Below, in pieces: positions 24,779 to 61,683 of a stretch of 64,000 nt of DNA. The DNA lies in assembly GCA_947599835.1 (NCBI GenBank), contig CANQFQ010000002.1, positions 35,402 through 99,401 on the forward strand, given 5' to 3'. The first letter of the stretch is position 1; each line of letters opens with the position of its first letter. The DNA comes from an uncultured Bacilli bacterium (GTDB lineage: Bacteria > Bacillota_I > Bacilli_A > RFN20 > CAG-631). The position numbers and the translations under genes are program-made. Under the pieces are notes generated by a model that was given only the letters and a program-made list of their open reading frames with translations, was not told where the DNA came from and searched no databases.

Positions 24779-25234
24779 ATGGGCACAATTCAATTTAGAG
24801 GAAGATTTGAACATAATTTAGATGAAAAAGGCCGCATTATATTGCCTAGTACTTTTAGACAAAAACTTGGTGAAAATGCTGTTATGAGTTTAGGTCTTGA
24901 TGAAAGTACGATTACCATCTATCCAGAAGAAGAATGGAACAAGTTACAAGATTCTTTATCTGAAACGACATTACCCGATCCTGTCCTTCGCGACATTCAA
25001 ATTGTATTAAATACAAATGCGGTGGATGTGGAAATTGACAAACAAGGAAGAGTAAAGATTCCTGATTATTTATTAAATGTTGCTAAGATTACAAAGAATG
25101 TTTGTATCGTGGGAAATGCTTCCAAGATAGAAATCCGTGATCTTGATACTTGGAATCAAAAAATAGGTAATGCTTTAAAAGTTTATAACAAAAATATTGA
25201 TCACCTAGCGAAAAGAAATCAGAAAAAGGAGTAA
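24779..25234 (+). CDS. mraZ: transcriptional regulator MraZ
   Basis: 151 aa, two DXXXR-containing SpoVT/AbrB-like repeats (…LDEKGRIILP…, …DKQGRVKIP…); first gene of dcw-type cluster. Confidence 0.88.
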   Translation: MGTIQFRGRFEHNLDEKGRIILPSTFRQKLGENAVMSLGLDESTITIYPEEEWNKLQDSLSETTLPDPVLRDIQIVLNTNAVDVEIDKQGRVKIPDYLLNVAKITKNVCIVGNASKIEIRDLDTWNQKIGNALKVYNKNIDHLAKRNQKKE

Positions 25235-25240
25235 TACACG

Positions 25241-26170: not shown

Positions 26171-26186
26171 GAAAGGGGTGTACAAG

Positions 26187-26420
26187 ATGAGATATGTAAA
26201 TTTAAAAAAGCAAAGAACTTCTAAATTAGAAAATAATTCTAAAAAATTTGCCATCATAGGTTTTGTTACATTATTATTTACAGCCCTTCTTGTATTGCCT
26301 GCAACACGCCAATTAGAAGCTTCAAATTCTGCTACGCAAGATAGCAACTTGCAATTGGAAAATAATGTGATCACAACCGACGGCGATGTTTATAATTTCC
26401 TAGAATCCGTTCAAAATTAA
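26187..26420 (+). CDS. FtsL-like small bitopic membrane protein (cell-division protein candidate)
   Basis: 77 aa with single TM FAIIGFVTLLFTALLVL, in the FtsL position after rsmH; start ATG 26187 with GAAAGGGG RBS (track start 26139 unlikely). Confidence 0.5.
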   Translation: MRYVNLKKQRTSKLENNSKKFAIIGFVTLLFTALLVLPATRQLEASNSATQDSNLQLENNVITTDGDVYNFLESVQN

Positions 26421-26480
26421 TTTTAAATTTTTTAGTTTTTATAATAGTTTTTCTTTAAATATTTTATTTTTATTTTTCTT

Positions 26481-26512
26481 AAAGGTATCTGTGGCTAGGA
26501 TACCTTTTTTGT
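26481..26512 (+). terminator. Rho-independent terminator after mraZ-rsmH-ftsL-like operon
   Basis: AAAGGTATC / GATACCTTT 9-bp stem with 9-nt loop followed by TTTTTG. Confidence 0.6.
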
Positions 26513-26617
26513 ATATAAAGAAAGAAAAGCATTGAAAAAATACAGCAATTGAGTAAAATAATTGTGGTAGTCTATTCTAATATTTGATAAAATATTAAAA
26601 TAGAGAGGTGGATTTTT

Positions 26618-27130
26618 ATGGATTTAAATAAATATATTGCAACGATTCAAGATTTTCCTAAAGAAGGCATTTTATTTCGGGATATGACGCCTTTACTTCA
26701 AGATGGAAAAGCTTTTAAATATACGATTGATCAACTTGCAGATTTTGCACGTAATGCAGGTGCCGATGTCATTGTCGGCCCTGAAGCGAGAGGATTTATT
26801 TTTGGAACACCAGTAGCAAGTAAATTAGAAATTGGGTTTGTTCCTGTCCGTAAACCTAATAAATTACCTAGAGAAACAATTTGTTATGAATATGCCTTAG
26901 AATATGGCACAAATACACTACATATACATAAAGATGCCATCAAAAAGGGCCAAAAAGTGGTCATTATTGATGATTTGTTGGCTACAGGTGGAACCATTGA
27001 AGCTGCGATTCATTTAATCGAAGCTTTAGGCGGAATTGTTGTGGGTTGTGCTTTTTTAATTTGCCTAGATGCTCTTCATGGAGAAGAACGTTTAAAAAAA
27101 TATAAAACATTAAGTTTATTACATTATTAA
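26618..27130 (+). CDS. apt: adenine phosphoribosyltransferase
   Basis: 170 aa, PRPP-binding [13 protein letters not shown] motif, strong APRT-family similarity; RBS GAGAGGTGG. Confidence 0.92.
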
Positions 27131-27152
27131 ATGAATTGAAAGAAAGGTTATC

Positions 27153-29369
27153 ATGGAATATCATACAAGTAAAACATTTCAAGATGTTCTTTTACAAATG
27201 AAAACATATATTCATAATCAAGAAGATATTGACTTTGTCTTATCTGCTTTTGATTATGCTTCAAAACATCATTTTCAACAATTTAGAAAATCGGGAGAAC
27301 CCTTTATTAACCATTGCATTGAAGTGACCTATATTCTTGCAACGTATCAAATGTCGCCCACTACTTTAGCTTGTGGATTGTTGCATGATGTGATTGAAGA
27401 TTGTCAAGTCACTTATCAAGAATTAAAGGAAAAATTTGGGGAAGAAGTAGCGAATATTGTAGAAGCTGTGACAAAAATTCATCGTTTGCCTTCTGTTAAT
27501 TTGGAAGAAAGTACGGCCGCTACGCATCGAAAATTAATTCTTGCCATGGCAAAAGATGTGCGGGCGGTAATTGTTAAACTAGCCGATCGCTTACATAATA
27601 TGCGTACATTACAATTTCATACCCCTGAAAAACAAAAAAAGATTGCCCAAGAAACCTTAGAAGTTTATGCGCCATTAAGCCATCGCTTAGGGATGAATGA
27701 ATTAAAAAATGAACTCGAAAATCTTTCTTTTTATTATTTAGATCGCGAAAAATATGTAGAAATTGAAAAATTAATTCATGAAAAACTAGCGCATAGTGAA
27801 AATGGAGTGGATTTGTTGATTAGTGATATTTCTAAATTACTAGATCAACGCCATTATCATTATCGTATTTTTGGTCGTACAAAACATATTTATAGTGTCT
27901 ACAAAAAAATCTATGTCAAGGGCGTGATGTTTGAACGTATTTTTGATTTACAAGCGATTCGAATTATCACGGAAACCAAATTACAATGTTATGAAATTTT
28001 AGGTTTAATTCATGAAAAATATGTTCCTATTCCTGGACGTTTTAAGGATTATATTGCGATGCCAAAACCAAATCTTTATCAATCGCTTCATACAACCATT
28101 TGCGATAGCAATGGAAATTTATTCGAAATTCAAATTCGGACCAAAGAAATGGATCGCATTGCCGAAAATGGTGTGGCTGCGCATTGGATTTATAAAGAAA
28201 GTTCCGCTAGTAAAGATGCTTCGAAGAAGCAAAAATTAACTAGGGAACAATTCGCTTGGTTAAACCAATTGATTAATATGTATGAAGAAAATCCTGATAG
28301 CAGTGATGAAGAGTATATCAAACAAGTTCAAAAAGATATTTTTGAAGCCAATGTTTACTGTTTAACGCCTAAAGGAAAAATTGTGGATCTTCCACAAGGC
28401 GCCACCCCGATTGATTTTGCTTACCACATTCATACCGAAGTTGGAAATCGGGCCATTGGTGCACTAGTAAATAAAATGATTGTCCCTCTAAATACCGTTT
28501 TAAAAACGGGAGATGTTGTCGAAATTAAAACTTCGAAAAATATGATTGGTCCTAGGTCAGATTGGCTAAAATTTGTTAAAACGAATAGCGCACGGTCGCA
28601 AATTAAAAAAGCTTTAGCTAAAAAAGAAGCACAAGAACATGATGAAATTAATGAAGGATATTATAAACGGGGAGTTCAATTACTTGAAGATGTTATTGAA
28701 ACCAAACAATTCAATAAAGAAGAAATTTTTGATTCTTTAGAACAAATCAGCATTTTAAATTATTTCAATGCGAAGAGTGCTCGAGATTTAATCATTGATG
28801 TCGGAAAAAAAGTCTTTTCAGCACAAATGGTGGTCAATCAATGTAGTGATTTAAAACCAAATTTAATTGTTCAAATCAATCAATTAGTCAAAAAAATGCA
28901 TGTTTCTTCCGAAATGAAAAATAATCCATCGGATATCAAAATTAAGGGCATTGATGGAATTAAAGTAGAACCTGCCAGTTGTTGTAAGCCAATTCCTGGC
29001 GATATCATTATAGGATATATTACGCGGGGAAATGGCGTTAAAGTGCATCGTAAAAATTGTCCAAATATTTTACACGAAAAAAAACGCTTGATCGAAACAT
29101 CTTGGTCGGATACTTTAACTTTAACGTATTATCCGGTAGATTTAGATATTTTAGCGAATGATAGAAAAGATTTAGTGCTAGATTTATTAAGTTTAATTTC
29201 GAGTACCAAAATTCGGATTGATAATATTAATGCGAAATCGCATTATGAAAACAAAACAGCGACCATTTCTTGTACTGTTTATGTTTCAGATGTCAACCAT
29301 TTAGAAACTTTAATTTCGAATTTGAGTAAAATTACTGGAATCTTAGAAGTGAATCGAGTATTCCATTAA
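27153..29369 (+). CDS. relA: bifunctional (p)ppGpp synthetase/hydrolase Rel (RelA/SpoT family)
   Basis: 738 aa; HD hydrolase domain, RelA_SpoT synthetase domain, TGS and ACT C-terminal domains; follows apt as in Bacillus. Confidence 0.92.
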   Translation: MEYHTSKTFQDVLLQMKTYIHNQEDIDFVLSAFDYASKHHFQQFRKSGEPFINHCIEVTYILATYQMSPTTLACGLLHDVIEDCQVTYQELKEKFGEEVANIVEAVTKIHRLPSVNLEESTAATHRKLILAMAKDVRAVIVKLADRLHNMRTLQFHTPEKQKKIAQETLEVYAPLSHRLGMNELKNELENLSFYYLDREKYVEIEKLIHEKLAHSENGVDLLISDISKLLDQRHYHYRIFGRTKHIYSVYKKIYVKGVMFERIFDLQAIRIITETKLQCYEILGLIHEKYVPIPGRFKDYIAMPKPNLYQSLHTTICDSNGNLFEIQIRTKEMDRIAENGVAAHWIYKESSASKDASKKQKLTREQFAWLNQLINMYEENPDSSDEEYIKQVQKDIFEANVYCLTPKGKIVDLPQGATPIDFAYHIHTEVGNRAIGALVNKMIVPLNTVLKTGDVVEIKTSKNMIGPRSDWLKFVKTNSARSQIKKALAKKEAQEHDEINEGYYKRGVQLLEDVIETKQFNKEEIFDSLEQISILNYFNAKSARDLIIDVGKKVFSAQMVVNQCSDLKPNLIVQINQLVKKMHVSSEMKNNPSDIKIKGIDGIKVEPASCCKPIPGDIIIGYITRGNGVKVHRKNCPNILHEKKRLIETSWSDTLTLTYYPVDLDILANDRKDLVLDLLSLISSTKIRIDNINAKSHYENKTATISCTVYVSDVNHLETLISNLSKITGILEVNRVFH

Positions 29370-29381
29370 GGAGGTAAAAAG

Positions 29382-30644
29382 ATGGCCAATTATACACGAT
29401 GTCGTGGAACCTTAGATATTTATGATAAGCAAGCTTCTTTAATTCAAAAAGTAGAAAGGGCTTGTCAAAAAATTGCGCATCAATTTCATTATAGCTATAT
29501 TCAAACCCCAATGTTTGAATCGAGTGAATTATTTACACGTAGTAGTGGAGAAACAAGCGATATTGTAACCAAAGAAATGTATACATTTTTAGATAAAGGA
29601 AATCGGAGTATTACTTTACGACCTGAAGGAACCGCCGGTGTCATTCGGGCCATTATCGAAAACAAATTATATGCGACTAACGATTTACCCTTAAAATATT
29701 ACTATTCAGGTTCATTTTTTCGATATGAACGTCCACAAGCTGGAAGATATCGTGAATTTATGCAATTTGGGGTCGAAGTCGTAGGAACGCAATCTTATTT
29801 AGATGATGTTGAAACGATTTTATTTATCGTGGCTATTTTAAAAGAATTAAATTTAAATGAATACACCATTAAAATGAATAGTTTTGGAAATGAAATTTGT
29901 AAAAATCGTTATCGGGATACTTTGAAAAATTATTTTTGGCAATTTAAAGAACAACTTTGTGAAGATTGTCAAACCCGCTTGCAAGTGAATCCTTTACGTG
30001 TATTAGATTGTAAAGTGGATCATGACTTTTTCAAAACGAAAGAGATTCCTACGGCTGTATCTTGTTTAGATGCCCAAGCACAAGAAGAATTTGCTTTGGT
30101 TCAAAAAATTTTAACACAACAAAAAGTTCCTTATATTGTCGATCATCAATTAGTTCGTGGACTGGATTATTATACCGGATTAATTTTTGAAATCGATATT
30201 CAAGCTGTTGATGGTAAGGTGTATACCATTGGTGGAGGGGGTCATTATAGTAATCTTGTAAAAGAATTAGGCGGTCCTGATTTATCTTGCGTAGGTTTTG
30301 GATTAGGAATCAATCGACTTGCTTTAATTTTACAAGAACAATATCAAGACAAATCAATGGACACGACACCATCAATTTATATCATGCCATTATGTGAAGA
30401 TGCTATTTTTATTGCCATGGATATGGCTAAACAACTTCGTGAACACGATTATGTTGTCACCATTGAAAATGGTAAGAAAAGTGTTTCTTCCATGTTTAAA
30501 TATGCTTCAAAAAAACAGTTTAGTTATGCCATTGTCATTGGTGAAAATGAAATCAATGCGAAAAAAGTTAATCTAAAAAATATGCAAACACAACAACAAG
30601 AAATGGTTGCTGTAGATGAAGTTTTAAATGTTTTAAGGGGGTAA
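29382..30644 (+). CDS. hisS: histidine--tRNA ligase
   Basis: 420 aa class II aaRS with HisRS motifs (…LRPEGTAGVIRA…, …GGGHYSNL…); only 12 nt after relA, no T-box leader. Confidence 0.92.
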   Translation: MANYTRCRGTLDIYDKQASLIQKVERACQKIAHQFHYSYIQTPMFESSELFTRSSGETSDIVTKEMYTFLDKGNRSITLRPEGTAGVIRAIIENKLYATNDLPLKYYYSGSFFRYERPQAGRYREFMQFGVEVVGTQSYLDDVETILFIVAILKELNLNEYTIKMNSFGNEICKNRYRDTLKNYFWQFKEQLCEDCQTRLQVNPLRVLDCKVDHDFFKTKEIPTAVSCLDAQAQEEFALVQKILTQQKVPYIVDHQLVRGLDYYTGLIFEIDIQAVDGKVYTIGGGGHYSNLVKELGGPDLSCVGFGLGINRLALILQEQYQDKSMDTTPSIYIMPLCEDAIFIAMDMAKQLREHDYVVTIENGKKSVSSMFKYASKKQFSYAIVIGENEINAKKVNLKNMQTQQQEMVAVDEVLNVLRG

Positions 30645-30648
30645 TCAT

Positions 30649-32385
30649 ATGCAATTAAAGCACCGGACACATCATAATAATGAATTGCGTTTGACAGATG
30701 TAGGTCAAATTGTAGAATTAAAAGGATGGGTCGCTAAAAAAAGAAATTTAGGCTCATTAGTTTTTATTGATTTACGCGATAAAGAAGGGATTACACAATT
30801 AGTTTGTGATGAAAAATTCGAAAAAATCACTACAAAAATTAGAAATGAATATGTGATTTATGCTAAAGGAAAAGTCATTGAACGAACAGCTAAAAATCCA
30901 AATTTAGCCACTGGTGATATTGAAGTAGAGGTTGAAGAATTACAAATTATCAACACTTCTGAAACGCCTCCAATGATTATTGCAGCGGAAACGGATGCTT
31001 TAGAAGAGACACGATTAAAATATCGTTATTTGGATTTAAGACGTCCACAACTTCAACAAGCACTCAAATTACGGTATGAAATTACTAAATCGATTCGAGC
31101 TTATTTTGATGCTCTCAATTTTATTGAAATTGAAACACCGATTATTGCTAAAACAACACCAGAAGGGGCTAGAGATTATTTAATTCCAAGTCGTGTCAAT
31201 AAGGGAAAATTTTATGCTTTACCTCAATCTCCACAAATTTTTAAACAATTATTAATGGTGGCTGGATTTGAAAGATATTTTCAAATTGCTAGATGTTTTA
31301 GAGATGAAGATCTAAGAGCGGATCGTCAAATGGAATTTACTCAAGTGGATTTTGAAGTGAGTTTCTTTGAAATTGAAGAATTTTATGCTTTAGTTGAAGG
31401 ATTGTTTGTCAAAATCATGAAAGATATCAAAAATATTGATTTGAAAGTACCTTTTCAACGACTTACATGGCATGATGCGATGAATCGTTATGGCAGTGAC
31501 AAGCCGGATTTACGTTTTAAAATGGAATTAGTCGATGTCAGTGATATTTTTAAAGACACGACGGTCCCTTTTTTACAAAATGAATGTGTCAAAGCCATCA
31601 AAGTTGAAAAAGGCAACACCATTACACGAAAAGAGATTGATCACTATACCGAACTTGTTAAAAAATATAAGGCTAAAGGACTTTGTTTTGTTCGCATGAA
31701 TCATGGTGTATTAGAAGGTAGTAGTGCAAAATTGCTCACAGAAACCGAAAAAGAAAAATTGATTCAAACGTTAGATTTGCAAGATACCGATTTGGTCTTT
31801 TTTATCAGTGATCAATGGTTAATTACAGTTACAGCCCTCGGTGCTTTAAGAAATGCTTTAGCAAAAAAATTAGACATCATTGATGAAAATGAGTATAATT
31901 TCTTGTGGATAGTTGATTTTCCAATGTATGAATATAATGATGAGGGTGAGTTATGTGCGATGCATCATCCATTCACTTCTTATCGAAAAGAAGATGAAAA
32001 ATATCTTGAAAGCGATCCATTAAAAGTTCGTGCAAATGCCTATGATGTTGTTTTAAATGGGTATGAATTAGGTAGTGGTAGCGTGCGTATTTTTAATCAA
32101 GATGAACAACGCAAAGTGTTTGAAAAATTAGGTTTATCTGATGAAGACATTCGGTATAAATTTGGTTTCTTTGTGGATGCCTTAAAATATGGTACACCAC
32201 CTCATTGTGGCATGGGACTTGGATTAGATCGCATTGCTATGATTTTAAATCATAGTCAATCCTTACGTGATGTCATTGCTTTTCCAAAAAATGCCTCAGC
32301 GATTTGCCCAATGTCTGAAGCACCATCTACCGTAAGTCAAAAACAATTGGATGAATTAGCCATTCAAATTAAAATGGAGAAATAA
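30649..32385 (+). CDS. aspS: aspartate--tRNA ligase
   Basis: 578 aa; OB-fold anticodon domain, class II motifs FRDEDLRADRQ, GLGLDR. Confidence 0.92.
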   Translation: MQLKHRTHHNNELRLTDVGQIVELKGWVAKKRNLGSLVFIDLRDKEGITQLVCDEKFEKITTKIRNEYVIYAKGKVIERTAKNPNLATGDIEVEVEELQIINTSETPPMIIAAETDALEETRLKYRYLDLRRPQLQQALKLRYEITKSIRAYFDALNFIEIETPIIAKTTPEGARDYLIPSRVNKGKFYALPQSPQIFKQLLMVAGFERYFQIARCFRDEDLRADRQMEFTQVDFEVSFFEIEEFYALVEGLFVKIMKDIKNIDLKVPFQRLTWHDAMNRYGSDKPDLRFKMELVDVSDIFKDTTVPFLQNECVKAIKVEKGNTITRKEIDHYTELVKKYKAKGLCFVRMNHGVLEGSSAKLLTETEKEKLIQTLDLQDTDLVFFISDQWLITVTALGALRNALAKKLDIIDENEYNFLWIVDFPMYEYNDEGELCAMHHPFTSYRKEDEKYLESDPLKVRANAYDVVLNGYELGSGSVRIFNQDEQRKVFEKLGLSDEDIRYKFGFFVDALKYGTPPHCGMGLGLDRIAMILNHSQSLRDVIAFPKNASAICPMSEAPSTVSQKQLDELAIQIKMEK

Positions 32386-46565: not shown

Positions 46566-47661
46566 AAAAGTATTATTATTTGGAGGATCTTATAATCCTA
46601 TCCATCAAGGACATTTGAATGCTGCCATCAATGCTTGTAATTATTTAAAATGTGATGAAGTATGGCTAATTCCTAGAAAATATAACTATGATGGCTCATT
46701 GCTTCTCGATAGTAAACATCGAATTGCAATGATGAAAATGGCGCTAACTGGCCTTGACAATTTTAAGATTTGCGATATTGAATTAAAAGATAAAAATAAA
46801 TCTTTTATTTATACGTATAACACTGCTAAATATTTAAAAAGAAAATATAAAGATCAATATCAATTTTATTTTTTAATTGGCGCGGATCAATTAAATAATA
46901 TTGAAAATTGGTATGCCATCGAGCAATTAACAAAAATGTTTCAATTTGTTTGTTTTAAACGTCCTGGTTATCCAATTATGAATGATTTAGCCGATAAATA
47001 TCATATTACAATTATTGATGGTCGGCAAATTGAAGCTTCAAGTACAATGGTACGTTCAGGCGATTTTGATAAAATTAATGACAATATTCAAAAATACATT
47101 ATGGAGCATGGATTGTATTTGAAAGAAAGAATTATGCCACGGTTACCTGAACGCTTATTCATTCATAGTTTGACGAGTGCACGGCTTGCAAAAAAAATTG
47201 CAATCAGTTTACATGTCAATGCGAATCGTGCTTATGTTGCAAGTCTTTTACATGATATTTCTAAATCATTAACTGCCGATGAAATCAAAAAAATTATTGA
47301 AATTCATTATCCTTGTAAACTGCATTTACCAGATTTTGCTTGGCATCAATATGCAAGTGCGTATCTTGCTAAAGTAGAATTTGGTATTCATGATAAAAAA
47401 ATATTAAAAGCCATTGAAAGTCATTGTTATGCTACCATGAAGATGTCACTTTTAGATAAAATTGTGTATTGTTCAGATAAATTAGAAGAAAGCAGATCCT
47501 TTGCCGATGAAGTGATTGAAATTAGAAAGGAAGCTTTGACCAATATTCATCTTGCCTTTATCCATACGATGGAAGAACAGTTACGCATTTTAAAAAATAA
47601 AAAATTACCGGTCGATACGCATTTGGAAAAACTTATAAATTATTATAAAAGAAAGGAATAA
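46549..47661 (+). CDS. nadD: fusion protein: nicotinate-nucleotide adenylyltransferase (NadD) + HD-domain phosphohydrolase (YqeK)
   Basis: N-terminal half GGSYNPIHQGHL (NadD HxGH) and SxT region; C-terminal half HD domain HSLTSARLA…LLHDISK; single uninterrupted ORF; start ATG 46549/46555 overlapping yhbY end (uncertain). Confidence 0.8.
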   Translation: MLMESKKVLLFGGSYNPIHQGHLNAAINACNYLKCDEVWLIPRKYNYDGSLLLDSKHRIAMMKMALTGLDNFKICDIELKDKNKSFIYTYNTAKYLKRKYKDQYQFYFLIGADQLNNIENWYAIEQLTKMFQFVCFKRPGYPIMNDLADKYHITIIDGRQIEASSTMVRSGDFDKINDNIQKYIMEHGLYLKERIMPRLPERLFIHSLTSARLAKKIAISLHVNANRAYVASLLHDISKSLTADEIKKIIEIHYPCKLHLPDFAWHQYASAYLAKVEFGIHDKKILKAIESHCYATMKMSLLDKIVYCSDKLEESRSFADEVIEIRKEALTNIHLAFIHTMEEQLRILKNKKLPVDTHLEKLINYYKRKE

Positions 47662-48680: not shown

Positions 48681-48704
48681 AAAAAGGCGATTTGCCTTTT
48701 TTTT
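48681..48704 (+). terminator. Rho-independent terminator after mtnN
   Basis: AAAAAGGC-gattt-GCCTTTTT hairpin followed by T-run. Confidence 0.6.
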
Positions 48705-48867
48705 ATTTAATTTAGGTCAAAAAATGCAAATTTTACTTAAAAATAATATGCCTGTTTATACTATTTGTTTAAAGATTACAATTTTTTTATTTTTTTCTAG
48801 TATTAACTTTTTATTTATTATATAATAAATATGGTTTACATTGTAGTCCGTATAGGAGGGTAAATTT

Positions 48868-51800
48868 ATGAAAAAATCAATTAGCAAAACTATATTCAAA
48901 GGAGTTTCGTTTTCTTTTTTGTGTGCAAGTTTATTTTTAACTTCTTGTTCATCCAATACAAAGAAAAATTGGAATCCAAAAAATAGCGATTCTTCAAAAT
49001 GGGAAGATGTATCCACTTATAAACGCTTATTAGCCCCTGCTAATTTAAAATACGATGCTTCCAAATCCATCCTTTCATGGTCAGCTGTGGATGGTGCAAG
49101 AGCTTATGTTGTTAATTTGAATGGTGAGATTATTAGTTCGCGTGTTACCACTTGTGAATATGAATTTACCTTGTCAAATTTAGAATTGCTTGCAGCTAGT
49201 CAAACCAGCCTAATTAGTGTTCGTGCATTAGCAAAAACAGATGTATATGAAGATTCTCCATATGCTAGTATTACGATTAATCGAACTGATGCTACATCTA
49301 ATTTTACTTATCGGTTATCCGATGATGATCAAACATTAGAAATTACAGGTTTTGCCAATAACATTGATACCACGAAATATGAAGATGAAGGTCTTACATT
49401 TCCGAACACCATTGATGGATTTACTGTTACGCGGATTGCTGACAGAGCCTTTTATCGAAATACCTATCGATTTGATGTTTCGTTTGAAGAAGGATATTTG
49501 TCTATTGGTGAATCTGCGTTTTATAATTCACGTTTTGTGAGTATAACTTTACCAACGACATTAAAAACAATTGAAGACCACGCTTTCCAATCTAGTCGTA
49601 TTAACACAATAATACTTCCTCGAAATATAGAAACTTTGGGTGTGGGTGCTTTCCAAGAAAGTTACTTAGAAACCGTGACTTTTGATGAAAATATATCGCT
49701 TCAAACAATTCCTGAAAATTGTTTTGATTCAACTTCTTTACAATCAGTTGTTTTACCTGCTTCTGTAAAGCAAATTGAAAAAGAAGGTTTTGCAAGAATT
49801 TCTACTTTGAAAGAACTTAAATTTGCTCCCGATGGAAAAACGAGTCTATTAGAATCCATTGGTGAATCTGCATTTATCGGAGCAACTTCTTTAAAAAATA
49901 TTGTTTTTCCGGCTTCTTTAAGAGAAATTAAAGACTCTGCATTTGCTTCGACAGTGGGTTCAAATTGTTCTTATGAAACCATTATGTTTGATACGGATTC
50001 TCGTATAGAAACCATTGGTAATTCCGCTTTTATTCGTTCTTTGAATAGTAATAATTTCAAATATTTTGGAGTCAAAGTGGAAGATAGTGCTGCACTTCCA
50101 GAAGTGGCTACTATTGTATTTCCTAAAACGTTAAAATCTATTGGAATAAGCGCTTTTCAAACTGCTGCTGTTGTTGAAATTCAATTTGAACCTGGAAGTG
50201 TGATTCAAAATATTGATAATCAAGCCTTTTATCAAAATTCACGATTAGTATCGGTTCAACTTCCTGCATCATTGGAAACCATTGGCGAATCTGCATTTAA
50301 TGGATGTACAAATCTTGAGATCGTTGATGCAACTTCTCTCGATGCACAACTTAAAAAAGTTTATGCTAATTCCTTTAATGGAACCAAATGGTATGAGGCT
50401 TCTAATTATATTGTCTTAAATAATGTTTTAATTAAAGATGTCGATCCGATAGACACACCAAGAGAAACGCTTCAAATAGCCGAAGGAATCAAATACATTG
50501 CGAATGGTCTTTATAGTAATGGAAAATATACTTCCATTACTTTACCTAATTCGTTGATTGGTATTTATGAATCAGCTTTTAGTAATAATAGTGAAATTAC
50601 TGCCATCTCAATTCCAAGCAATGTCGAATTTATTGATCAAACGGCATTTTATCGTTGTGAAAAGGTTGAAACTTTGATTTTTGAACCAAATAGTCATCTT
50701 CAAACGATTGGGGTGGGTGCCTTTTCTGGATTAAAATTGTCCTCTATCCGTATTCCTGATAGTGTCATTACCATTGATAGTAGTGCTTTTTCAAACAATA
50801 CGAATGTTAGTTCCGTTATTTTTGAAGGAACTCCTAAAGTTGAAACGATTGGTGCGAATAGTTTCTATGGAATGTCACTATTAAATACATTTACTTTACC
50901 TGATTCTGTAAAAACCATTGGTCAATTAGCTTTTGCTATTGATGCCAATGCTATGAGTGGATTAACTTCTTTTGAAATTTCAAATCAAAGCAATCTTCAA
51001 TTTATTGGCAATTCTGCATTTAGTAATCAACAATACTTAACCACTTTTAAATTACCGGATAGTGTTGAAATTATTGATGATAATGCTTTTTATAACACAA
51101 AATTATTACAAGATTTTCAAATCAGTAATACCTCACAACTTAAAGAATTACATGCTTCTGTTTTTGATGGTAGTGGCATTACTTCCTTTACCCTTCCTGC
51201 AAGTATGGAATATTTAAGCAATGCTGCTTTTAGTGGAGCTAGTGCCTTAACCAATGTTACTTTTGATGATCAATCTTTTGCAAATGCCCTAGAAGAAAAT
51301 CAAACTTTATTTGCAGATACTTTCAGAAATTGTCTTTCACTTCGTGAAATTCATTTACCACAACACATTTTAAATATTGAAAGAAATGCTTTCAACGGAT
51401 GTAGTAATTTACTTACGATTACTACGTATGCTTCAACAATTGATTCTAGTGCATTTGATGGTACGGCATTTGCCGATTCATTTGAAAATGGCATGATTAC
51501 TTTAAATCATGTATTGGTAAAATATTCTGGAAATGATGCAACGATAGTTTTGCCAAATGATATTATCACGATTAATGAAAATGCTTTTGTGGACAAAACA
51601 AATTTAGTTTCCATTACTCTTCCTGCATCTTTGGTTACAATCAAGGATAATGCTTTTGCAAATTGTGAAAACTTAACCACCATTGTTTTACCAAATAATG
51701 CACAATTAGAAACGATTGGCAATCATGCTTTTGCAAATTGTTATGCTTTAACGAATTTTAATTTCACTTCACATTTAAAAACAATGGGTGAATTTGCCTT

Positions 51801-53073
51801 TTTAAATTGTCGTAATCTTGGTGCTGCAAATTTAGCAAGTACCCAACTTGAGACCATTCCATTTGCGGCCTTTGCGAATAACCGTAAATTGCAAGAAGTG
51901 ACTTTACCAGAAACGCTTCAAACGATTGATACGGCTGCTTTCTATTTCGATAGTATTACAAGTATTTCTATTCCAAGTAGTGTGGTAAGTGTTGCAGCTT
52001 ATGCATTTGCATTTAATATTTCTTCTACGAATGCCCCTGCAATTCAAATCACGACAATGATGCAAGAAAATACTTTAGAAACAATTGTCAATCATAAAAA
52101 TAGTTTAATTGAAAATATAAGCAATTATGATTTTACGATTGAAAATTTATCTTTTGCTCTCACGGGTCAATTAGAAACTGTTGGAACCTATGCTTTTAGT
52201 GGCTCAAAAATCACAGAATTATTACTTCCTAATCATGATAATGCAAGTATTTATCTTGAAGCCGATGCTTTTAGTTATGCGACAAAACTTACAAAAGTTA
52301 GTTTTGAAGTGAATGTTTCCTTTGATCTTGGCGTCTTAAGAGGAGCCACTTCTTTACAAGAAATCGAACATAATAGTGAGATTCTTACTTTTACTGCATT
52401 TGGCAATACGGTGACTTCTTTACCAAAAAGCCTAGAAAAAATTGTGATTTCCGATGGTTCAACTAAAATTTTAGATGATGCTTTTAATGGCTATTCCTTT
52501 ATTAAAGAAATTGTTTTACCTGATACCATTCAATCGATTGGTAAACATGCTTTCTATGGTTGTCGCCAATTAACCCAAATCAATCTTGAAAATGTTGAAA
52601 CCATTGGTGATGAAGCTTTTGTCGGTTGTGTTCAATTAAGTCAAATTACCATGGGAACATCTTTAACAAAAATCGGAAATAAAGCTTTCATGGCAACAGC
52701 TTATCTTAATGGTAAGCAAGATGCAGACAATCCATTTATTATTGAAAATGGTATACTATTACTTTACACCGGAAATGAAAAGGAAGTTACACTTCCAGAG
52801 GGTGTTGTTCGGATTGCTGGCGGAGCCTTTAGTGGCAATGCAACAGTCGAAAAAATTATTGCTTCTAGTCAGTTAAAATATATCGATGCCAATGCTTTTG
52901 ATAGTGCAATTCATCTTACGAATTTAGATTTAACGCATTGTACTTCGATTGTCGAAATCGGCTTATATTTATTTAACGATGCGGCGAAAGAATTTAAGGT
53001 AACAGTAACGAATGTGGATGATTATGTTGAATCTAGTGTTTATTGGAAATTATATAGAGATTATCTAGCTTAA
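48868..53073 (+). CDS. giant cell-surface lipoprotein: N-terminal Fn3-like module followed by >40 BspA-type leucine-rich repeats
   Basis: 1401 aa; signal peptide and lipobox LTSCSS; LSWSAVDGARAYVVNLNG module; long array of ~23-aa repeats (…IGESAFYNS.F.SITLP.TLKTI…); AGGAGGG RBS. Confidence 0.8.
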   Translation: MKKSISKTIFKGVSFSFLCASLFLTSCSSNTKKNWNPKNSDSSKWEDVSTYKRLLAPANLKYDASKSILSWSAVDGARAYVVNLNGEIISSRVTTCEYEFTLSNLELLAASQTSLISVRALAKTDVYEDSPYASITINRTDATSNFTYRLSDDDQTLEITGFANNIDTTKYEDEGLTFPNTIDGFTVTRIADRAFYRNTYRFDVSFEEGYLSIGESAFYNSRFVSITLPTTLKTIEDHAFQSSRINTIILPRNIETLGVGAFQESYLETVTFDENISLQTIPENCFDSTSLQSVVLPASVKQIEKEGFARISTLKELKFAPDGKTSLLESIGESAFIGATSLKNIVFPASLREIKDSAFASTVGSNCSYETIMFDTDSRIETIGNSAFIRSLNSNNFKYFGVKVEDSAALPEVATIVFPKTLKSIGISAFQTAAVVEIQFEPGSVIQNIDNQAFYQNSRLVSVQLPASLETIGESAFNGCTNLEIVDATSLDAQLKKVYANSFNGTKWYEASNYIVLNNVLIKDVDPIDTPRETLQIAEGIKYIANGLYSNGKYTSITLPNSLIGIYESAFSNNSEITAISIPSNVEFIDQTAFYRCEKVETLIFEPNSHLQTIGVGAFSGLKLSSIRIPDSVITIDSSAFSNNTNVSSVIFEGTPKVETIGANSFYGMSLLNTFTLPDSVKTIGQLAFAIDANAMSGLTSFEISNQSNLQFIGNSAFSNQQYLTTFKLPDSVEIIDDNAFYNTKLLQDFQISNTSQLKELHASVFDGSGITSFTLPASMEYLSNAAFSGASALTNVTFDDQSFANALEENQTLFADTFRNCLSLREIHLPQHILNIERNAFNGCSNLLTITTYASTIDSSAFDGTAFADSFENGMITLNHVLVKYSGNDATIVLPNDIITINENAFVDKTNLVSITLPASLVTIKDNAFANCENLTTIVLPNNAQLETIGNHAFANCYALTNFNFTSHLKTMGEFAFLNCRNLGAANLASTQLETIPFAAFANNRKLQEVTLPETLQTIDTAAFYFDSITSISIPSSVVSVAAYAFAFNISSTNAPAIQITTMMQENTLETIVNHKNSLIENISNYDFTIENLSFALTGQLETVGTYAFSGSKITELLLPNHDNASIYLEADAFSYATKLTKVSFEVNVSFDLGVLRGATSLQEIEHNSEILTFTAFGNTVTSLPKSLEKIVISDGSTKILDDAFNGYSFIKEIVLPDTIQSIGKHAFYGCRQLTQINLENVETIGDEAFVGCVQLSQITMGTSLTKIGNKAFMATAYLNGKQDADNPFIIENGILLLYTGNEKEVTLPEGVVRIAGGAFSGNATVEKIIASSQLKYIDANAFDSAIHLTNLDLTHCTSIVEIGLYLFNDAAKEFKVTVTNVDDYVESSVYWKLYRDYLA

Positions 53074-53093
53074 TGTTGTCGGTGGTGGTTTAA

Positions 53094-53528
53094 ATGGAAA
53101 CACAAATTAAAATGAGTCGTACAAAAATGCATGAAAATGCTATGATTTGTCTATATCAATATCTCATTTATAATAAAGTTTCAAAAAAATATCGTAAAAG
53201 TATTACAGAAATTGTAAGTGATATTATGGAAGTTTCTTTTGATGATTGTGATGAGTTTTTCAGGTGTATCTTATTTGAAGCCATTCAAGATAAAAAACAA
53301 TTAATTGAAAAGATATCTTCTTGTTTGTCACAAACATGGAAGTTTAATCGTTTGGCGATGATTGCCCAAGCGATTCTTTTGTTGTTTAGTGGAGAAATTA
53401 CGCATCATCGTTTAGAAATCCATGTGGCTATCGATGTGGCTGTTGATTTGGCCAAACGATATTTAGATGAAAATGATTATAAATATATTCATGCGGTTTT
53501 AGATCGTATTGGTAAAGAGTATGCTTAA
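53094..53528 (+). CDS. nusB: transcription antitermination factor NusB
   Basis: 144 aa all-helical; MSRTKMHENAMICLYQYLIY start region similar to NusB MSRR.ARE.ALQ.LYQ; conserved position before xseA. Confidence 0.7.
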   Translation: METQIKMSRTKMHENAMICLYQYLIYNKVSKKYRKSITEIVSDIMEVSFDDCDEFFRCILFEAIQDKKQLIEKISSCLSQTWKFNRLAMIAQAILLLFSGEITHHRLEIHVAIDVAVDLAKRYLDENDYKYIHAVLDRIGKEYA

Positions 53529-54789
53529 TTCAAATTTTTTAACTGTGAGTGAAGTAAACAGTTATATTAAAACTTATCTTGAAAACAATTATTTTTTGAG
53601 TGATATTTACGTTAAAGGTGAAATATCTAATTTTAAACGTCATCAAACAGGGACGTTTTATTTTAGTATCAAAGATGCCACTTCGAAAATCAATGTGGTT
53701 ATGTTTTCAAGCTATGCAAATAAAGTAAAAGATCCTTTGAAAGATGGAAGTCTTGTGTTAATCCGAGGTCACATTTCTGTATATGAAGCAGCGGGAAATT
53801 ATCAAATTATTGCCACAGAATTATCCCTTGATTCCATCGGCCAATTATATTTGGAATATGAACGATTAAAAAAACAATTAGAAGCCGAAGGATTATTTGA
53901 TGAAAAATATAAAAAAGCGTTACCTGCCTATCCTAACAAGATTGGAATTATCACAGCTCCTAAAGGGGCTGCGATTCATGATATGCTAAATACCATCCAA
54001 CATCGTTGGCCTCTAGCTGATGTGATTTTATTTCCTTCCTTAGTTCAAGGAATAAAAGCTGCAGAAGATATTGTCAAAAATATTCAACTCGCGGATCAAT
54101 ATGATTTAGATGTCATTATTTGTGGTCGGGGTGGAGGTTCCATCGAAGATTTGTGGCCATTTAATGAAGAAATTGTAGCAAGAGCCATTTTTCATTGTAA
54201 AACACCTATAATTTCTGCGATTGGCCATCAAAGTGATTATACGATTGCTGACTTTGTTGCCGATAAAAGAGGGCTGACGCCTACCGATGGTGCTGTCCTT
54301 GCTACACCTAAAAAAGAAACTGAATTAGAAAAAATAAGCAATCAAAAGAAATTATTGTTGCATTTGATGACGCAAATCATCAATCAAAAGAAAACCTTAT
54401 TAGCTCAACAAAAAAAGGCCTATATCTTTCAACATCCTCAAAAGCTATATGAAACTTATCGTTTAAAATTAGAACATCTTGAAAAGATGATGATGCAAGA
54501 AATGGAGCAAAAAAATCAATTAACTAGAAAAGATATCGAGACGAAAGCACAAACGCTCATCCATTCTTTTCAAAATTTATTCAATCAAAAACGATATAAT
54601 TTTACAACTTTAATGGGAAAGTTAGATGCTTTAAGTCCCTTAAAAATTTTAAAAAGAGGTTATGGCGCTTTATTTAAAGAAAATCATAATGTAAAAAGTA
54701 TTCATGAAATTCAAGAAAATGATCTTCTTTCGATTCGGTTAGCCGATGGAAAAATAGTTACAAAGGTCATTCATAAGGAGGAAAAGTAA
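53521..54789 (+). CDS. xseA: exodeoxyribonuclease VII large subunit
   Basis: OB-fold N-terminus (LTVSEVNSYIK…), 423 aa from ATG 53521 (overlaps nusB end; TTG 53509 alternative). Confidence 0.85.
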   Translation: MLNSNFLTVSEVNSYIKTYLENNYFLSDIYVKGEISNFKRHQTGTFYFSIKDATSKINVVMFSSYANKVKDPLKDGSLVLIRGHISVYEAAGNYQIIATELSLDSIGQLYLEYERLKKQLEAEGLFDEKYKKALPAYPNKIGIITAPKGAAIHDMLNTIQHRWPLADVILFPSLVQGIKAAEDIVKNIQLADQYDLDVIICGRGGGSIEDLWPFNEEIVARAIFHCKTPIISAIGHQSDYTIADFVADKRGLTPTDGAVLATPKKETELEKISNQKKLLLHLMTQIINQKKTLLAQQKKAYIFQHPQKLYETYRLKLEHLEKMMMQEMEQKNQLTRKDIETKAQTLIHSFQNLFNQKRYNFTTLMGKLDALSPLKILKRGYGALFKENHNVKSIHEIQENDLLSIRLADGKIVTKVIHKEEK

Positions 54790-54791
54790 CC

Positions 54792-55025
54792 ATGGAAGAT
54801 AAAAATACATTCGAAACATCATTAAAAAAATTAGAAGATATTGTTACTAAACTGCAAAAGGGTGATGTTGAATTAGAAGAAGCCTATTCCTTATTTGAAG
54901 AAGGAATCAAATTAACGAAAGAATGTGAAGAAAAATTAACGCGGATTGAAGAAAAATTAGCTAAAATACTTCAAAATAATGAACTTGTAGACTTCCATTT
55001 AGATACGGAATCTTCCAATGAATAA
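54792..55025 (+). CDS. xseB: exodeoxyribonuclease VII small subunit
   Basis: 77 aa helical protein FETSLKKLEDIVTKLQKGDVELEEAYSLFEEGIKLTKECEEKL. Confidence 0.85.
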   Translation: MEDKNTFETSLKKLEDIVTKLQKGDVELEEAYSLFEEGIKLTKECEEKLTRIEEKLAKILQNNELVDFHLDTESSNE

Positions 55026-57530: not shown

Positions 57531-58541
57531 TTGAAAAAGCGTTATTTATTATTTTTAATAGGATTAACTGTCTTTAGTAGTCATGCCAATCAAACGCAAG
57601 GCGTCAATGCACAATCCCTTTATTTACCAGGAGGGGAAAATATTGCCATTGAAATTAAAGCCGATGGTTTATTAGTTACTGGCACTTATGATATTCAGAC
57701 CGATAAGGGAACATATAATCCTTCAAGGGACAATGATATTTGGCGTGGTGACTTGATTTATGAAGTGAATCATCAAAAAATCACGTCGATCAAAGATTTG
57801 CCAAATGTGATTGAAGATAAGAACCAACAAGAATATCATCTACCGATCAAATTATATCGAGATCACCTTTCTTTAGATAAAAATCTACGTTTGATTAAAG
57901 TTTCTAAAGATGGCTCTTTAAAAACTGGATTATTAGTTAAAGAAAGAATATTAGGAATTGGAACGGTTTCTATTTATAATACACAAACGAAAACTTATGC
58001 GGCTTTAGGGCATCAATTTACGGATAATGACTTTGAAAATGTCGTTGAATTAACGACAGGAAACATTTATGATAGTGAAGTCGTAGGTATTCGGAAAAGT
58101 AATAATGGGAGCCCAGGAGAAAAAGTTGCACAAATTGATGAAAATAAGCATTTAGGTTCGATTATTAAAAACAATCCATACGGCATTTATGGACATATCG
58201 ACCAATTGCCCAATAAAAAGGGAATGGAAATTGCAAAGCAAGATGAAATCAAAACCGGGAATGCAGAAATATGGACTGTAATGAAAAATAAAACCATCAG
58301 TAAATATAAAATTAAAATTACCCATTTAAAACAACAAGAAAATATCGCACCGAAAGGCATTACTTTTGAAATCGTTGATAAAGATCTATTAAAGATAAGT
58401 AATGGGATTGTTCAAGGAATGAGTGGCTCGACGATTGTTCAAAACAATAAAATAATTGGCGCAGTCACGCATGTTCTTGTTGATGATGTAAAAAAAGGAT
58501 ATGGGATTTATATCGAATGGATGATACAGGAAATGGAATAA
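57531..58541 (+). CDS. spoIVB: SpoIVB peptidase (stage IV sporulation serine peptidase, S55 family)
   Basis: signal-anchor N-terminus, PDZ-like region, catalytic GMSGS and HV motifs; TTG start with strong RBS; conserved recN-spoIVB-spo0A order. Confidence 0.85.
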   Translation: MKKRYLLFLIGLTVFSSHANQTQGVNAQSLYLPGGENIAIEIKADGLLVTGTYDIQTDKGTYNPSRDNDIWRGDLIYEVNHQKITSIKDLPNVIEDKNQQEYHLPIKLYRDHLSLDKNLRLIKVSKDGSLKTGLLVKERILGIGTVSIYNTQTKTYAALGHQFTDNDFENVVELTTGNIYDSEVVGIRKSNNGSPGEKVAQIDENKHLGSIIKNNPYGIYGHIDQLPNKKGMEIAKQDEIKTGNAEIWTVMKNKTISKYKIKITHLKQQENIAPKGITFEIVDKDLLKISNGIVQGMSGSTIVQNNKIIGAVTHVLVDDVKKGYGIYIEWMIQEME

Positions 58542-58550
58542 AATAAGACA

Positions 58551-58576
58551 AAACAGGCAATCATTTGCCTGTTTTG
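58551..58576 (+). terminator. Rho-independent terminator after spoIVB
   Basis: AAACAGGCA-atcatt-TGCCTGTTT perfect 9-bp stem; short T-run. Confidence 0.5.
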
Positions 58577-58683
58577 AACGTTTAAGAAAATATTTTGATA
58601 AAAAAATAAAATTTTAGTGATGTAAAATTATGTAGTTTTCTTCCTATTTATCTATAATTTAGTCAGACTTGAGGAGGAAAAAA

Positions 58684-59496
58684 ATGAAAAAATTTAAAAT
58701 GATTGTTGTTGATGATAGTATTGCTGTTTTAAAAATGTTTGAAAACGCTGTAAGCGATTATCCAAACTTTGAATTAATTCGCAAATATGATCGTGGAGAT
58801 TTATTTTTAGAGTATTTAGAAACCTCGAATGAAGAAGTAGATTTTGTCATTTTAGATTTAATCATGCCTGACATTGATGGAATTGAAATTGCCAAAATGA
58901 TTAAGCAAAGATACATGAATAAAGTCAAACATACGATATGTATGTCAGGTCTATCGAGTGAAAGCATGTTAAATCAAGTAAGCTATATTGGAATTGATTA
59001 TTTTGTAATGAAGCCCTTTGCAATGGATATTTTATTTAGAAAACTTGAGAATATTGCAGAAATGAGTTCAAAAATAGAATATAATCATAATCAAATGGAT
59101 GCTGAAACGTTAAGAATTCAAGTCGAATCAGATATTACGGATATTTTACATGAAATTGGTATCCCCGCCCATATCAAAGGGTATACTTACCTTAGAAAGG
59201 CCATTAGTGATGTCTTTTTTAATCAAGAATATTTAGGTCAAATTACAAAATTATTATATCCTGAAATAGCAAAATATTATCAAACGACTTCATCTCGTGT
59301 AGAAAGAGCCATTCGTCATTCGATTGAAACCGCATGGAACCGCGGAAATGTGGATGCAATTAATCACATTTTTGGTTATACCATTAATGCTAGTAAAGCA
59401 AAACCCACGAATTCTGAATTTATTGCTATGATTGCCGATAAATTACAATTAGATTATAAAATTAAAGAAACGAAGCTTTATCAATTACAATATTAA
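58684..59496 (+). CDS. spo0A: sporulation master response regulator Spo0A
   Basis: receiver domain (MIVVDDS…, DLIMPDIDG) plus diagnostic Spo0A C-domain ([56 protein letters not shown]); ATG 58684 6 nt after GAGGAGG; track start 58669 is an upstream TTG. Confidence 0.92.
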
Positions 59497-60321: not shown

Positions 60322-61683
60322 ATGTTCAATTGGCTCAAATTTATAACAGGGAGTGTTATTTTTGATAGAGATGTGAAGCAAGCATCTCAAAGAAAATTTT
60401 GGAATGTTTTGTTTTTTTTGTTTATGTTATTAATTTTATTAAGTTGTTTTTTTGCGATTGGTTATAATTTTGCTTTTAAATATCATTACAAGCAATCTCC
60501 GGAATATATCAAGGCCTATTCCTATGCAATGAAACAAGTCAGTGATGAAGATCCCTCTTTTGGATTCAATTGCAAAATTAACAAAAATGAATTAGTTTGT
60601 TTTGAAAATGATTCGATTGATGAAAAGGATAGTGGAAAACTTTATTTGGATACCCGCACTCAAGATCCATCTTTAGTTGCTGACTTAGATTATGAAATTA
60701 TCATTGATACGCGTGATCGGGATACGCTTATCGATTATACGGCAACTTATGTTTCCAAAACCGATAAAACACATACCATTACGCATATCGATTATCTTCA
60801 ACTTTCTAGCGAAGAAAGAAAAGATTTTAAATTCAGTACCATTGAATATTCACAAAATTCTTTAGATCAAAATACTTACTTAGGTTATGCCAATGTTTAT
60901 TTTAATGCACTCGCTGAGGATTCTAAAGAAAAAGCCGAGTATGAAAAGCTTAAAACCGATGTAGATAAGATTAATTATTTTACCAAAGTTGCCTTACCCG
61001 ATGTGGTCAACGATTATGATTCTGCACCCATTTTAATGAGTTATTATAGTGCTGAATTTTTAAAGACAAATAGCAAAAAAGAATTTGGATATGAACATGA
61101 TCGTTATATTTTATTATTAAAAGATAGTTTAGTTACCGCTTTTGTAACGAAACATAATGTCTTTGTTTATTTTGAAGGCACTTATCGCAAAGTTGCTGAT
61201 AATTTTAGGTTTCATGATAAAAATAGTTTAACCATGACCCAAGCTAAATTTAATCGTCACATTCAAGACTTTGTTATGTCTGTCTATGATGATATTGGTT
61301 CGACACAAATCTTAAATTATGCGATTAATATTTTCACTTATATGCCATTTTTAATCATTATTATCGCTGCGCTAGCCTTATTTATGTTCTTATTAACGCG
61401 AATTTCAAATGATGATTATGCCGATGGAAAATATATCGGTTGCTTTAAGATTGTTAGTGCTTGTTTATTAGGTGCTAGTTTGGCTACAGGCATTCTTGGT
61501 TTTATTCTTACCTTTTTCTTAAATCAAGGTGTTGCTTTTGCCATTTCGATGTCGTTATTAATTTCATTACTTGTCTTAAGAGTTTTACTTTTATCTTTAA
61601 TTTCCTTTATTAAAAAGAAAAGAGAAAATAAAAAAGCGACTTTGAATGAAGAAAGCAGTTCAGAAAAAATGGAATTATTATAG
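60322..61683 (+). CDS. hypothetical integral membrane protein (N-terminal TM, ~280-aa extracytoplasmic domain, C-terminal 3-4 TM bundle)
   Basis: 453-aa ORF; hydrophobic segments FWNVLFFLFMLLILLSCFFAIGY and C-terminal FLIIIIAALALFMFLL…ISMSLLISLLVL; no recognised motif. Confidence 0.5.
   Translation: MFNWLKFITGSVIFDRDVKQASQRKFWNVLFFLFMLLILLSCFFAIGYNFAFKYHYKQSPEYIKAYSYAMKQVSDEDPSFGFNCKINKNELVCFENDSIDEKDSGKLYLDTRTQDPSLVADLDYEIIIDTRDRDTLIDYTATYVSKTDKTHTITHIDYLQLSSEERKDFKFSTIEYSQNSLDQNTYLGYANVYFNALAEDSKEKAEYEKLKTDVDKINYFTKVALPDVVNDYDSAPILMSYYSAEFLKTNSKKEFGYEHDRYILLLKDSLVTAFVTKHNVFVYFEGTYRKVADNFRFHDKNSLTMTQAKFNRHIQDFVMSVYDDIGSTQILNYAINIFTYMPFLIIIIAALALFMFLLTRISNDDYADGKYIGCFKIVSACLLGASLATGILGFILTFFLNQGVAFAISMSLLISLLVLRVLLLSLISFIKKKRENKKATLNEESSSEKMELL

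Follow-up and report, generated by a model that had tools for sequence, protein, structure and literature searches.

A leucine-rich repeat lipoprotein gene with conserved position and architecture upstream of nusB-xseAB in uncultured gut Bacilli around Candidatus Caccosoma

The DNA analysed here is a 64-kb stretch (hereafter the window) of contig CANQFQ010000002.1, assembled from an uncultured member of the Bacilli. It carries an intact, ATG-started open reading frame (ORF; 48868..53073, + strand) for a predicted lipoprotein of 1401 amino acids composed mainly of leucine-rich repeats (LRRs) of the BspA type (Pfam LRR_5). Our comparisons indicate that this ORF is a conserved, single-copy gene of fixed architecture in the clade of uncultured Bacilli from the gut to which Candidatus Caccosoma belongs. 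The gene is probably the first of a conserved LRR-nusB-xseA-xseB transcription unit, and its product likely serves as a surface-anchored binding scaffold. What is new, as far as the sequences tell, is the positional orthology in ten lineages and the conserved regulatory layout that accompanies it. The protein is otherwise ordinary within a well-known class of repeat proteins, unusual only as a fixed, conserved gene heading a nusB operon, and its points of interest, namely its size, its fixed syntenic position, the invariant palindromic element of its candidate promoter and its lack of variation, are modest ones.

Orthologues were sought by scanning GTDB representative genomes with the neighbouring xseA as query, after which the ORFs were labelled by BLAST. 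An LRR gene occupies the interval between mtnN and nusB(-xseAB) in all ten related lineages found, which marks it as a positional orthologue. This synteny was seen in the GTDB relatives Lapin-014 bin57, Lapin-008 bin34, HGM10901, ERR321483-bin.4, a Hadza metagenome-assembled genome (MAG) and Candidatus Caccosoma faecigallinarum, and the gene order is identical on four more contigs that bear orthologues of the deep-branching or Caccosoma type. The nusB-xseA loci of Clostridia and Tissierellia, at which xseA is ~40% identical, are without an LRR gene at this place. An identical protein is on record at NCBI, on a 138.6-kb contig. Full-length orthologues are 1312-1421 aa long and share 31-58% identity; beyond them lie generic LRR_5 proteins of 1800-2400 aa that are 23-28% identical. 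The relatives are gut MAGs from rabbit, chicken and human gut samples. Candidatus Caccosoma corresponds to GTDB genus CAG-631, family CAG-631, order RFN20 (PMC8035907), and is placed by NCBI in Bacillota incertae sedis.

Because the flanking genes are 42-83% identical over the range in which the LRR proteins are 31-58% identical, the LRR gene evolves faster than its neighbours, yet it is clearly maintained. Conservation is highest over residues 1151-1350 (0.53-0.61, against 0.25-0.52 in all 50-residue bins outside), a stretch that opens in the C-terminal part of the third LRR block (residues ~1151-1277). Just two discrete indels separate the architecture of the window's sub-clade from that of the deep-branching sub-clade. 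One comprises two repeats (alignment columns 654-707, window residues ~603-650), and the other is a 21-residue helical insert (alignment columns 1140-1161, window residues ~1062-1082).

An earlier annotation, made from the sequence alone (the original prediction), had taken the presence of two BspA-like adhesins in 64 kb as a sign of host-associated surface variation, and had suggested that repeat number be compared between strains. That comparison went against it. The orthologue cluster of Ca. Caccosoma faecigallinarum holds 188 member sequences, and every one of the 13 distinct full-length within-species variants read is 1394 aa long, with 22 variable positions and on average 5 differences between any two. 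Homopolymer runs in the window gene stay below 7 for A/T and below 6 for G/C, and neither Tandem Repeats Finder nor a repeat search found tandem repeats in the DNA of this gene. Since its internal DNA repeats are short (at most 53 nt) and diverged (60-90% identity), the LRR repeats are old at the DNA level. None of the usual signs of phase or antigenic variation (slippage tracts, near-identical repeats, repeat-number alleles, close paralogue cassettes) was found. A variable or phase-variable surface antigen, serving immune evasion or host-range switching, could be argued from the two LRR_5 lipoproteins within 64 kb and from the differing repeat numbers of class members in Trichomonas (PMC2843621). 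With 13 variants of equal length, a clade-wide range of 1312-1421 aa produced by only two indels, neither homopolymers nor young repeats, and a second LRR gene just 23-28% identical to the first, surface variation is unsupported; we regard this alternative as largely refuted by the present analysis, and as very improbable.

Repeat proteins are prone to mis-assembly, and as the ORF comes from a metagenome assembly, a repeat-induced artefact or a decaying gene might be suspected. Assemblies made independently from different hosts, however, contain matching ORFs that are intact and full-length, the DNA of the repeats has diverged too far for assembly collapse, and the AlphaFold (AF2) model described below is confident, all of which leaves a non-functional or mis-assembled ORF with next to no probability. 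Horizontal transfer, or residence on a mobile island, was rejected because gene and flanks have the same G+C content (0.31-0.33) and the synteny is conserved.

With respect to the protein itself, the original prediction had correctly identified the gene as the largest in the window (1401 aa, the runner-up being 890 aa) and recognised an LTSC lipobox, which stands. Residues 17-27, FLCASLFLTSC, satisfy a PROSITE PS51257-type rule (K or R within residues 1-7; an uncharged h-region; [LIVMFWSTAG]2-[LIVMFYSTAGCQ]-[AGS]-C; Cys at 15-35) that is likewise satisfied by 10/10 orthologues and by the small LRR protein encoded elsewhere in the window, and Cys27 is invariant across the orthologue alignment. 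The ORF is thus predicted to encode a cell-surface lipoprotein that is lipidated and cleaved at Cys27, with a mature mass of ~150 kDa and an acidic pI of 4.6. The translation as read, which ends in ...YWKLYRDYLA, contains neither an LPxTG motif nor a C-terminal membrane segment. Neither lgt nor lsp lies in the 64-kb window.

Most of the mature protein consists of LRR_5 repeats. The Pfam search that had been proposed as a check gave a strong match to LRR_5 (PF13306, 'BspA type') at 700.4 bits (E=2.1e-214; gathering score 27.7 bits) over 15 stretches of several repeats each; secondary matches to LRR_8 and LRR_EndoS overlap this one, and all Pfam families matched are LRR families. A self-trained repeat hidden Markov model (HMM) recognised 38 units at a spacing of 22-26 residues and a strict regular expression matched 19, and the count rises to ~45 once degenerate units in the longer gaps and the strand spacing of the AlphaFold model are included, in agreement with the more than 40 repeats originally claimed. 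The model, computed for residues 202-1401 with six aligned orthologues, has a mean predicted local distance difference test score (pLDDT) of 89.4 and a predicted template-modelling score (pTM) of 0.58, and shows beta-strands every ~23 residues. Its best Foldseek matches in the PDB are 4FS7, 4GT6, 4CP6 and 4H09, and phmmer against the PDB retrieved the same LRR_5 proteins together with TpLRR (6MLX). Profile score, ~23-residue IP..V..IG..AF units and fold, three features out of three, therefore agree on LRR_5 membership. Because each of the three junctions that interrupt the array resembles the N-terminal cap opening block 1, the protein can be described as a chain of four LRR_5 domains, with roughly 14, 14, 16 and 4 repeats in turn and a helical cap at the end. 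In the orthologue alignment IAGGAFSGN is invariant in block 4, as are W1393, L1395, Y1396, D1398 and L1400 in the cap. A match to the gliding protein Gli349 (88 bits against a cutoff of 1750) reflects repeat similarity only, and that identity was discarded.

The short module that precedes the array had been described as resembling fibronectin type III (Fn3). The resemblance holds at the level of fold, although the Pfam threshold was not reached. Pfam fn3 (PF00041, gathering score 25 bits) gave no match with the window fragment, and scored 18.2 and 15.2 bits in two orthologues (E=0.003 and 0.025). The N-terminal module (97 aa) likewise retrieved nothing in a word-index homology search, and an exhaustive profile search was required. 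The AF2 model of the module, on the other hand, is a confident beta-sandwich (pLDDT 88.4, pTM 0.80), and nearly all of its best 50 Foldseek matches in the PDB are Fn3 domains (probability 0.96-1.00, TMq 0.42-0.70). A profile built from seven orthologous modules weakly matched the FN3 of Enterococcus faecalis GH31 in the PDB (6M76, E=0.006), and also, weakly, an 'Fn3 domain-containing protein' (7JGT). Run on a set of 1.84 billion representative proteins, the profile gave 7831 matches, the top ones with 11-36 matched stretches each, and three top-ranked matches are poly-fn3 proteins (11-14 PF00041 domains by Pfam, E 1e-113 to 1e-164). The module appears to be a divergent Fn3 domain, a claim that we make at the fold or superfamily level only, because Pfam fn3 remains below threshold.

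The gene lies, as the original prediction had it, between the terminator of mtnN and nusB, with a gap of 20 nt to the latter; these coordinates were confirmed, and the upstream gene passes TIGR01704 (MTA/SAH nucleosidase, mtnN). The ten lineages share a layout consisting of a hairpin with T-run, the trinucleotide TAG, a 17-nt spacer, a core with TATAAT, a leader of ~30-35 nt, AGGAGG and ATG. The 15-nt core, TTTATTATATAATAA, encloses TATAAT and is part of a perfect 16-bp palindrome in the window and at four other loci. When compared with the equivalent positions at loci L001, L004, L005, L007, L008, L053-L055 and L069, a block of ~40 nt (48798-48835) is conserved although the LRR proteins are only 31-58% identical, while the surrounding intergenic DNA is unconserved. 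The motif is single-copy in the window. An Rfam search of the whole window matched no family, so the block does not appear to be a known RNA element. The palindrome with its TATAAT is a candidate promoter, and may also be an operator. A scan of the metagenome collection with the pattern TAGWW-N11-TTTATTATATAATAA returned at least 120 loci; among the matches listed L069 is the sole LRR locus, the others being unrelated hits in other DNA, and the scan is uninformative on any regulon.

Downstream, the 20-nt gap to nusB contains no terminator-like site, the corresponding gap is 4-22 nt and terminator-free in all ten lineages, and no alternative nusB promoter stands out. NusB was identified by Pfam at the orthologous loci, the window gene scoring just below the TIGR01951 cutoff. 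On the simplest reading, a conserved transcription unit LRR-nusB-xseA-xseB thus probably begins with the LRR gene, which would have a promoter of its own and possibly an operator. Read-through into nusB-xseAB, which had been proposed from the window sequence, is made more plausible by the spacing in the ten lineages. The coordinates of all these features are given in Table 1.

Table 1. Features of the LRR lipoprotein locus and of the second LRR gene (window coordinates)
Feature	Coordinates	Strand	Remarks
Terminator-like hairpin and T-run closing the yqeG...rsfS-mtnN string	48681..48701	+	Comparable hairpins at orthologous loci
Hexamer TAGTAT at the -35 position	48798..48803	+	Weak TTGACA match; TAG invariant in all lineages; 17 nt 5' of TATAAT
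Perfect 16-bp palindrome TTTATTATATAATAAA with candidate -10 TATAAT (48821-48826)	48814..48829	+	15-nt core invariant at every orthologous locus
Putative ribosome-binding site AGGAGG	48854..48859	+	8 nt 5' of ATG; kept in orthologues
Predicted lipoprotein signal peptide, residues 1-27	48868..48948	+	K-rich n-region, hydrophobic core, lipobox L-T-S-C, Cys27
S/D/N/K-rich low-complexity linker, residues 28-50	48949..49017	+	In all orthologues, sequence variable
Divergent fibronectin type III domain (predicted), residues ~51-142	49018..49293	+	AF2 fold, Foldseek, profile links; Pfam sub-threshold
LRR_5 block 1, residues ~163-506	49354..50385	+	N-terminal beta-hairpin cap and ~14 repeats
Junction 1, residues 507-524	50386..50439	+	Short helix and beta-hairpin (WYEASNYIVLNNVLIKD); model residues 306-323
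LRR_5 block 2, residues 525-866	50440..51465	+	~14 repeats, two of them missing from deep-branching orthologues
Junction 2, residues 867-886	51466..51525	+	Helix and beta-hairpin; model residues 666-685
LRR_5 block 3, residues 887-1277	51526..52698	+	~16 repeats; interrupted by sub-clade-specific insert
17-residue helix in block 3 insert, residues 1066-1082	52063..52113	+	Insert only in the window's sub-clade
Junction 3, residues 1278-1300	52699..52767	+	Helix and beta-hairpin; model residues 1077-1099
LRR_5 block 4, C-terminal helical cap and stop	52768..53073	+	~4 repeats
Gap to nusB, exactly 20 nt	53074..53093	+	G-rich stretch resembling a ribosome-binding site
nusB-xseA-xseB	53094..55025	+	Lie 3' of the LRR gene; transcription from the LRR promoter is probable
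Separate smaller LRR_5 lipoprotein, ATG 19478, 665 aa	19417..21475 (including promoter)	+	Distant family member

We propose that the protein is likely a surface-anchored, adhesin-like binding scaffold. Anchored through the N-terminal lipid at Cys27, it would sit on the outer side of the cytoplasmic membrane; linker and Fn3 domain would serve as a stalk, and the long acidic LRR array would extend through or along the cell wall, offering a large binding surface. Because residues ~1151-1350 are both the most conserved and the farthest from the anchor, they may form a conserved ligand-binding tip at the distal end. The closest solved relatives are cell-surface LRR_5 proteins, which include the pneumococcal adhesin PcpA and Treponema pallidum TpLRR. 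Among the specific functions that such a scaffold might have, adhesion to a ligand of host or microbial origin is the most likely. The protein would thus bind a host or microbial macromolecule in adhesion or coaggregation in the gut, by analogy with BspA, LrrA, PcpA and LrrG/HupY, and the proposal of host-cell adhesion in particular is drawn by analogy with BspA, PcpA and LrrG. Its gene would be transcribed as the first of the LRR-nusB-xseAB unit.

Several points weigh against this interpretation. The protein and all of its orthologues are known from metagenome assemblies only, and to call it an adhesin is to reason by analogy from proteins that have only the repeat class in common with it, HupY/LrrG scoring 247 bits against a cutoff of 1250. 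While the local structure of the AF2 model is confident, its inter-block geometry is uncertain (pTM 0.58). The promoter assignment is not secure, because the -35 hexamer is poor (2-3/6), and co-transcription with nusB is inferred from spacing alone. Finally, host-facing adhesins less typically show such strong conservation, constant length and low polymorphism, features that would also suit a structural or envelope role. Such a protein might be a core, constitutive surface scaffold, for example a layer that spans the wall or coats the cell, or a platform on which other envelope proteins dock, that is needed for cell integrity or cell-cell organisation, as would be consistent with its presence at the same locus in ten lineages with near-fixed length and repeat register, with the very low polymorphism within a species, and with its tight linkage to, and probable co-transcription with, the housekeeping genes nusB-xseAB. 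Yet the gene evolves faster than these housekeeping neighbours (31-58% versus 42-83%), Pfam found no S-layer-homology, cell-wall-binding or self-assembly domains, and we know of no LRR_5 protein that plays such a role; on balance we consider a structural function unlikely.

A further extension would make the lipoprotein a lineage-defining, indispensable envelope organelle of CAG-631/Caccosoma, with its palindromic promoter, a candidate operator for a repressor, as the main driver of nusB-xseAB. This idea derives from the retention of the palindrome, the upstream terminator and the terminator-free downstream junction in every lineage and from the lack of a conspicuous alternative nusB promoter, and we consider it decidedly improbable. 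If it were true, synthesis of the essential antitermination factor NusB would be wired to production of a surface-binding protein.

A role in nutrient capture, in which the LRR array would bind a small or macromolecular nutrient, such as haem or a host glycoprotein, and pass it to a membrane transporter, also deserves consideration, since haem binding and a contribution to haem use are reported for HupY/LrrG, which belongs to the same Pfam class (PMC6593403). HupY is the best named NCBIfam match of the window protein, and the lineage appears to be gut-dependent, judging from its rabbit, chicken and human gut samples. The HupY score falls far below its cutoff, however (247 against 1250), and the adjacent genes are mtnN and nusB, with no transporter, haem or metal-regulated neighbours. 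The conserved palindrome also appears unlike the Fur/PerR/MtsR-type boxes known to us. We therefore doubt that the protein is a receptor of this kind, and favour the adhesin-like scaffold.

Of the large surface proteins of gut bacteria that still lack an explanation, the LRR_5 (BspA-like) ones are among the commonest, and they are usually taken for variable adhesins. The present lipoprotein offers a counter-example, in that it occupies one housekeeping locus throughout a family-level clade and has a fixed repeat number and low polymorphism. It is a reasonable clade marker and a first candidate for the attachment of CAG-631 organisms to host or partner cells, and binding work has a defined target in its conserved distal block (residues ~1151-1350).

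The second LRR gene of the window was described in the original prediction as a smaller paralogue with a perfect consensus promoter. The promoter is indeed TTGACA-17-TATAAT (19417-19445), matching the sigma-70 consensus at 12/12 positions, and because its -10 element ends at 19445 the ATG at 19478 is the likely start. The protein, on the other hand, is not a close paralogue, being only 23-28% identical to the large one over the LRR parts and sharing with it the repeat class alone. It has one full-length orthologue in the protein database (55% identity). On account of this low identity and the single full-length orthologue, the second gene appears to be an accessory family member rather than a cassette partner or recent paralogue. 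A repeat-HMM scan of all window ORFs found these two LRR genes and no others. The smaller protein has an N-terminal region of ~230 aa with a weak BamE-like match, and its gene lies directly 3' of a LysR-type regulator gene (18506-19381).

Other features of the window were noted in passing. Since spoIVB and spo0A (57531-59496, +) score above NCBIfam equivalog cutoffs, the RFN20/CAG-631-like gut lineage carries core sporulation genes. A single 380-aa ORF (46519-47661, +) fuses NaMN adenylyltransferase (TIGR00482) with YqeK Ap4A hydrolase (TIGR00488), a fusion kept in relatives (370-375 aa at L001 and L004), whereas the two are separate adjacent genes in Bacillus. A sigma-70-family gene of 231 aa with regions 2 and 4 only (43842-44537, -) lies on the opposite strand, with a DNA_topoisoIV-family (GyrA/ParC-type) gene on one side and the yqeG-yqeH string on the other, and is conserved at this place at L001 and L004. 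At 24779-32385 (+), a 450-nt gap separates mraZ-rsmH from the apt, relA/spoT, hisS and aspS genes that come next, the usual division and cell-wall followers ftsL and penicillin-binding-protein genes being absent there. A 446-aa ORF (1389-2729, +) has weak ankyrin matches (Ank_2 E=7e-8, Ank_3 E=1e-6); ORFs of this type are uncommon in bacteria and typical of host-associated organisms. Three ORFs of 277, 564 and 453 aa (11001-11834, -; 36292-37986, -; 60322-61683, +) had no Pfam match at E<=1e-5.

Among characterised systems, BspA of Tannerella forsythia and LrrA of Treponema denticola act in adhesion and coaggregation, and PcpA of Streptococcus pneumoniae is an adhesin. In BspA the LRR region is followed by Big_2 Ig-like domains and a C-terminal sorting domain. 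In the window protein Pfam found only LRR_5, LRR_8 and LRR_EndoS, with no Big_2/Ig-like or other C-terminal domain, and the C-terminus is a short helical cap; in view of these missing domains it was ruled out as a BspA orthologue. What it shares with BspA and LrrA is the repeat class and predicted surface exposure, not orthology, and it is a monoderm lipoprotein, whereas they are outer-membrane or secreted proteins. With PcpA (4CP6) it shares an LRR_5-type solenoid, PcpA being its third-best fold match and related by sequence at E=5.8e-19, but PcpA has a single short LRR domain and is anchored by choline-binding repeats, which Pfam did not find here. LrrG/HupY of Streptococcus agalactiae and S. 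pyogenes is likewise a Gram-positive surface LRR protein, and its NCBIfam family (NF047961) is the best named match, at 247.5 bits over 9 matched stretches. LrrG/HupY serves as a surface adhesin whose binding partners are epithelial cells, gp340 and haem, and it is LPXTG-anchored, has 15 repeats, is regulated by MtsR and is encoded next to hupZ (PMC6593403). The window protein instead has a lipobox anchor and ~45 repeats, and with a score so far below the equivalog cutoff of 1250 bits and no LPXTG it was rejected as a HupY/LrrG equivalog.

The repeat class is typical of gut Firmicutes and Bacteroidetes, Firmicutes accounting for ~70% of the bacterial BspA-like proteins in the searches of one study (PMC2843621). 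The combination of Fn3 with LRR_5 is already present among our database matches, PF00041 being listed for P0052 and P0118. The solved LRR_5/TpLRR-BspA proteins (BACOVA_04585, 4FS7; a Faecalibacterium prausnitzii cell-surface protein, 4GT6; EUBVEN_01088, 4H09; TpLRR, 6MLX) are built from the same ~23-residue repeat, L..I.IP.sV..IG..AF..C..L. They contain 6-15 repeats, whereas the window protein has ~45 in four blocks, and it is distinguished from them by its predicted N-terminal lipid anchor, its putative Fn3 stalk and the fixed position of its gene at the head of the nusB operon.

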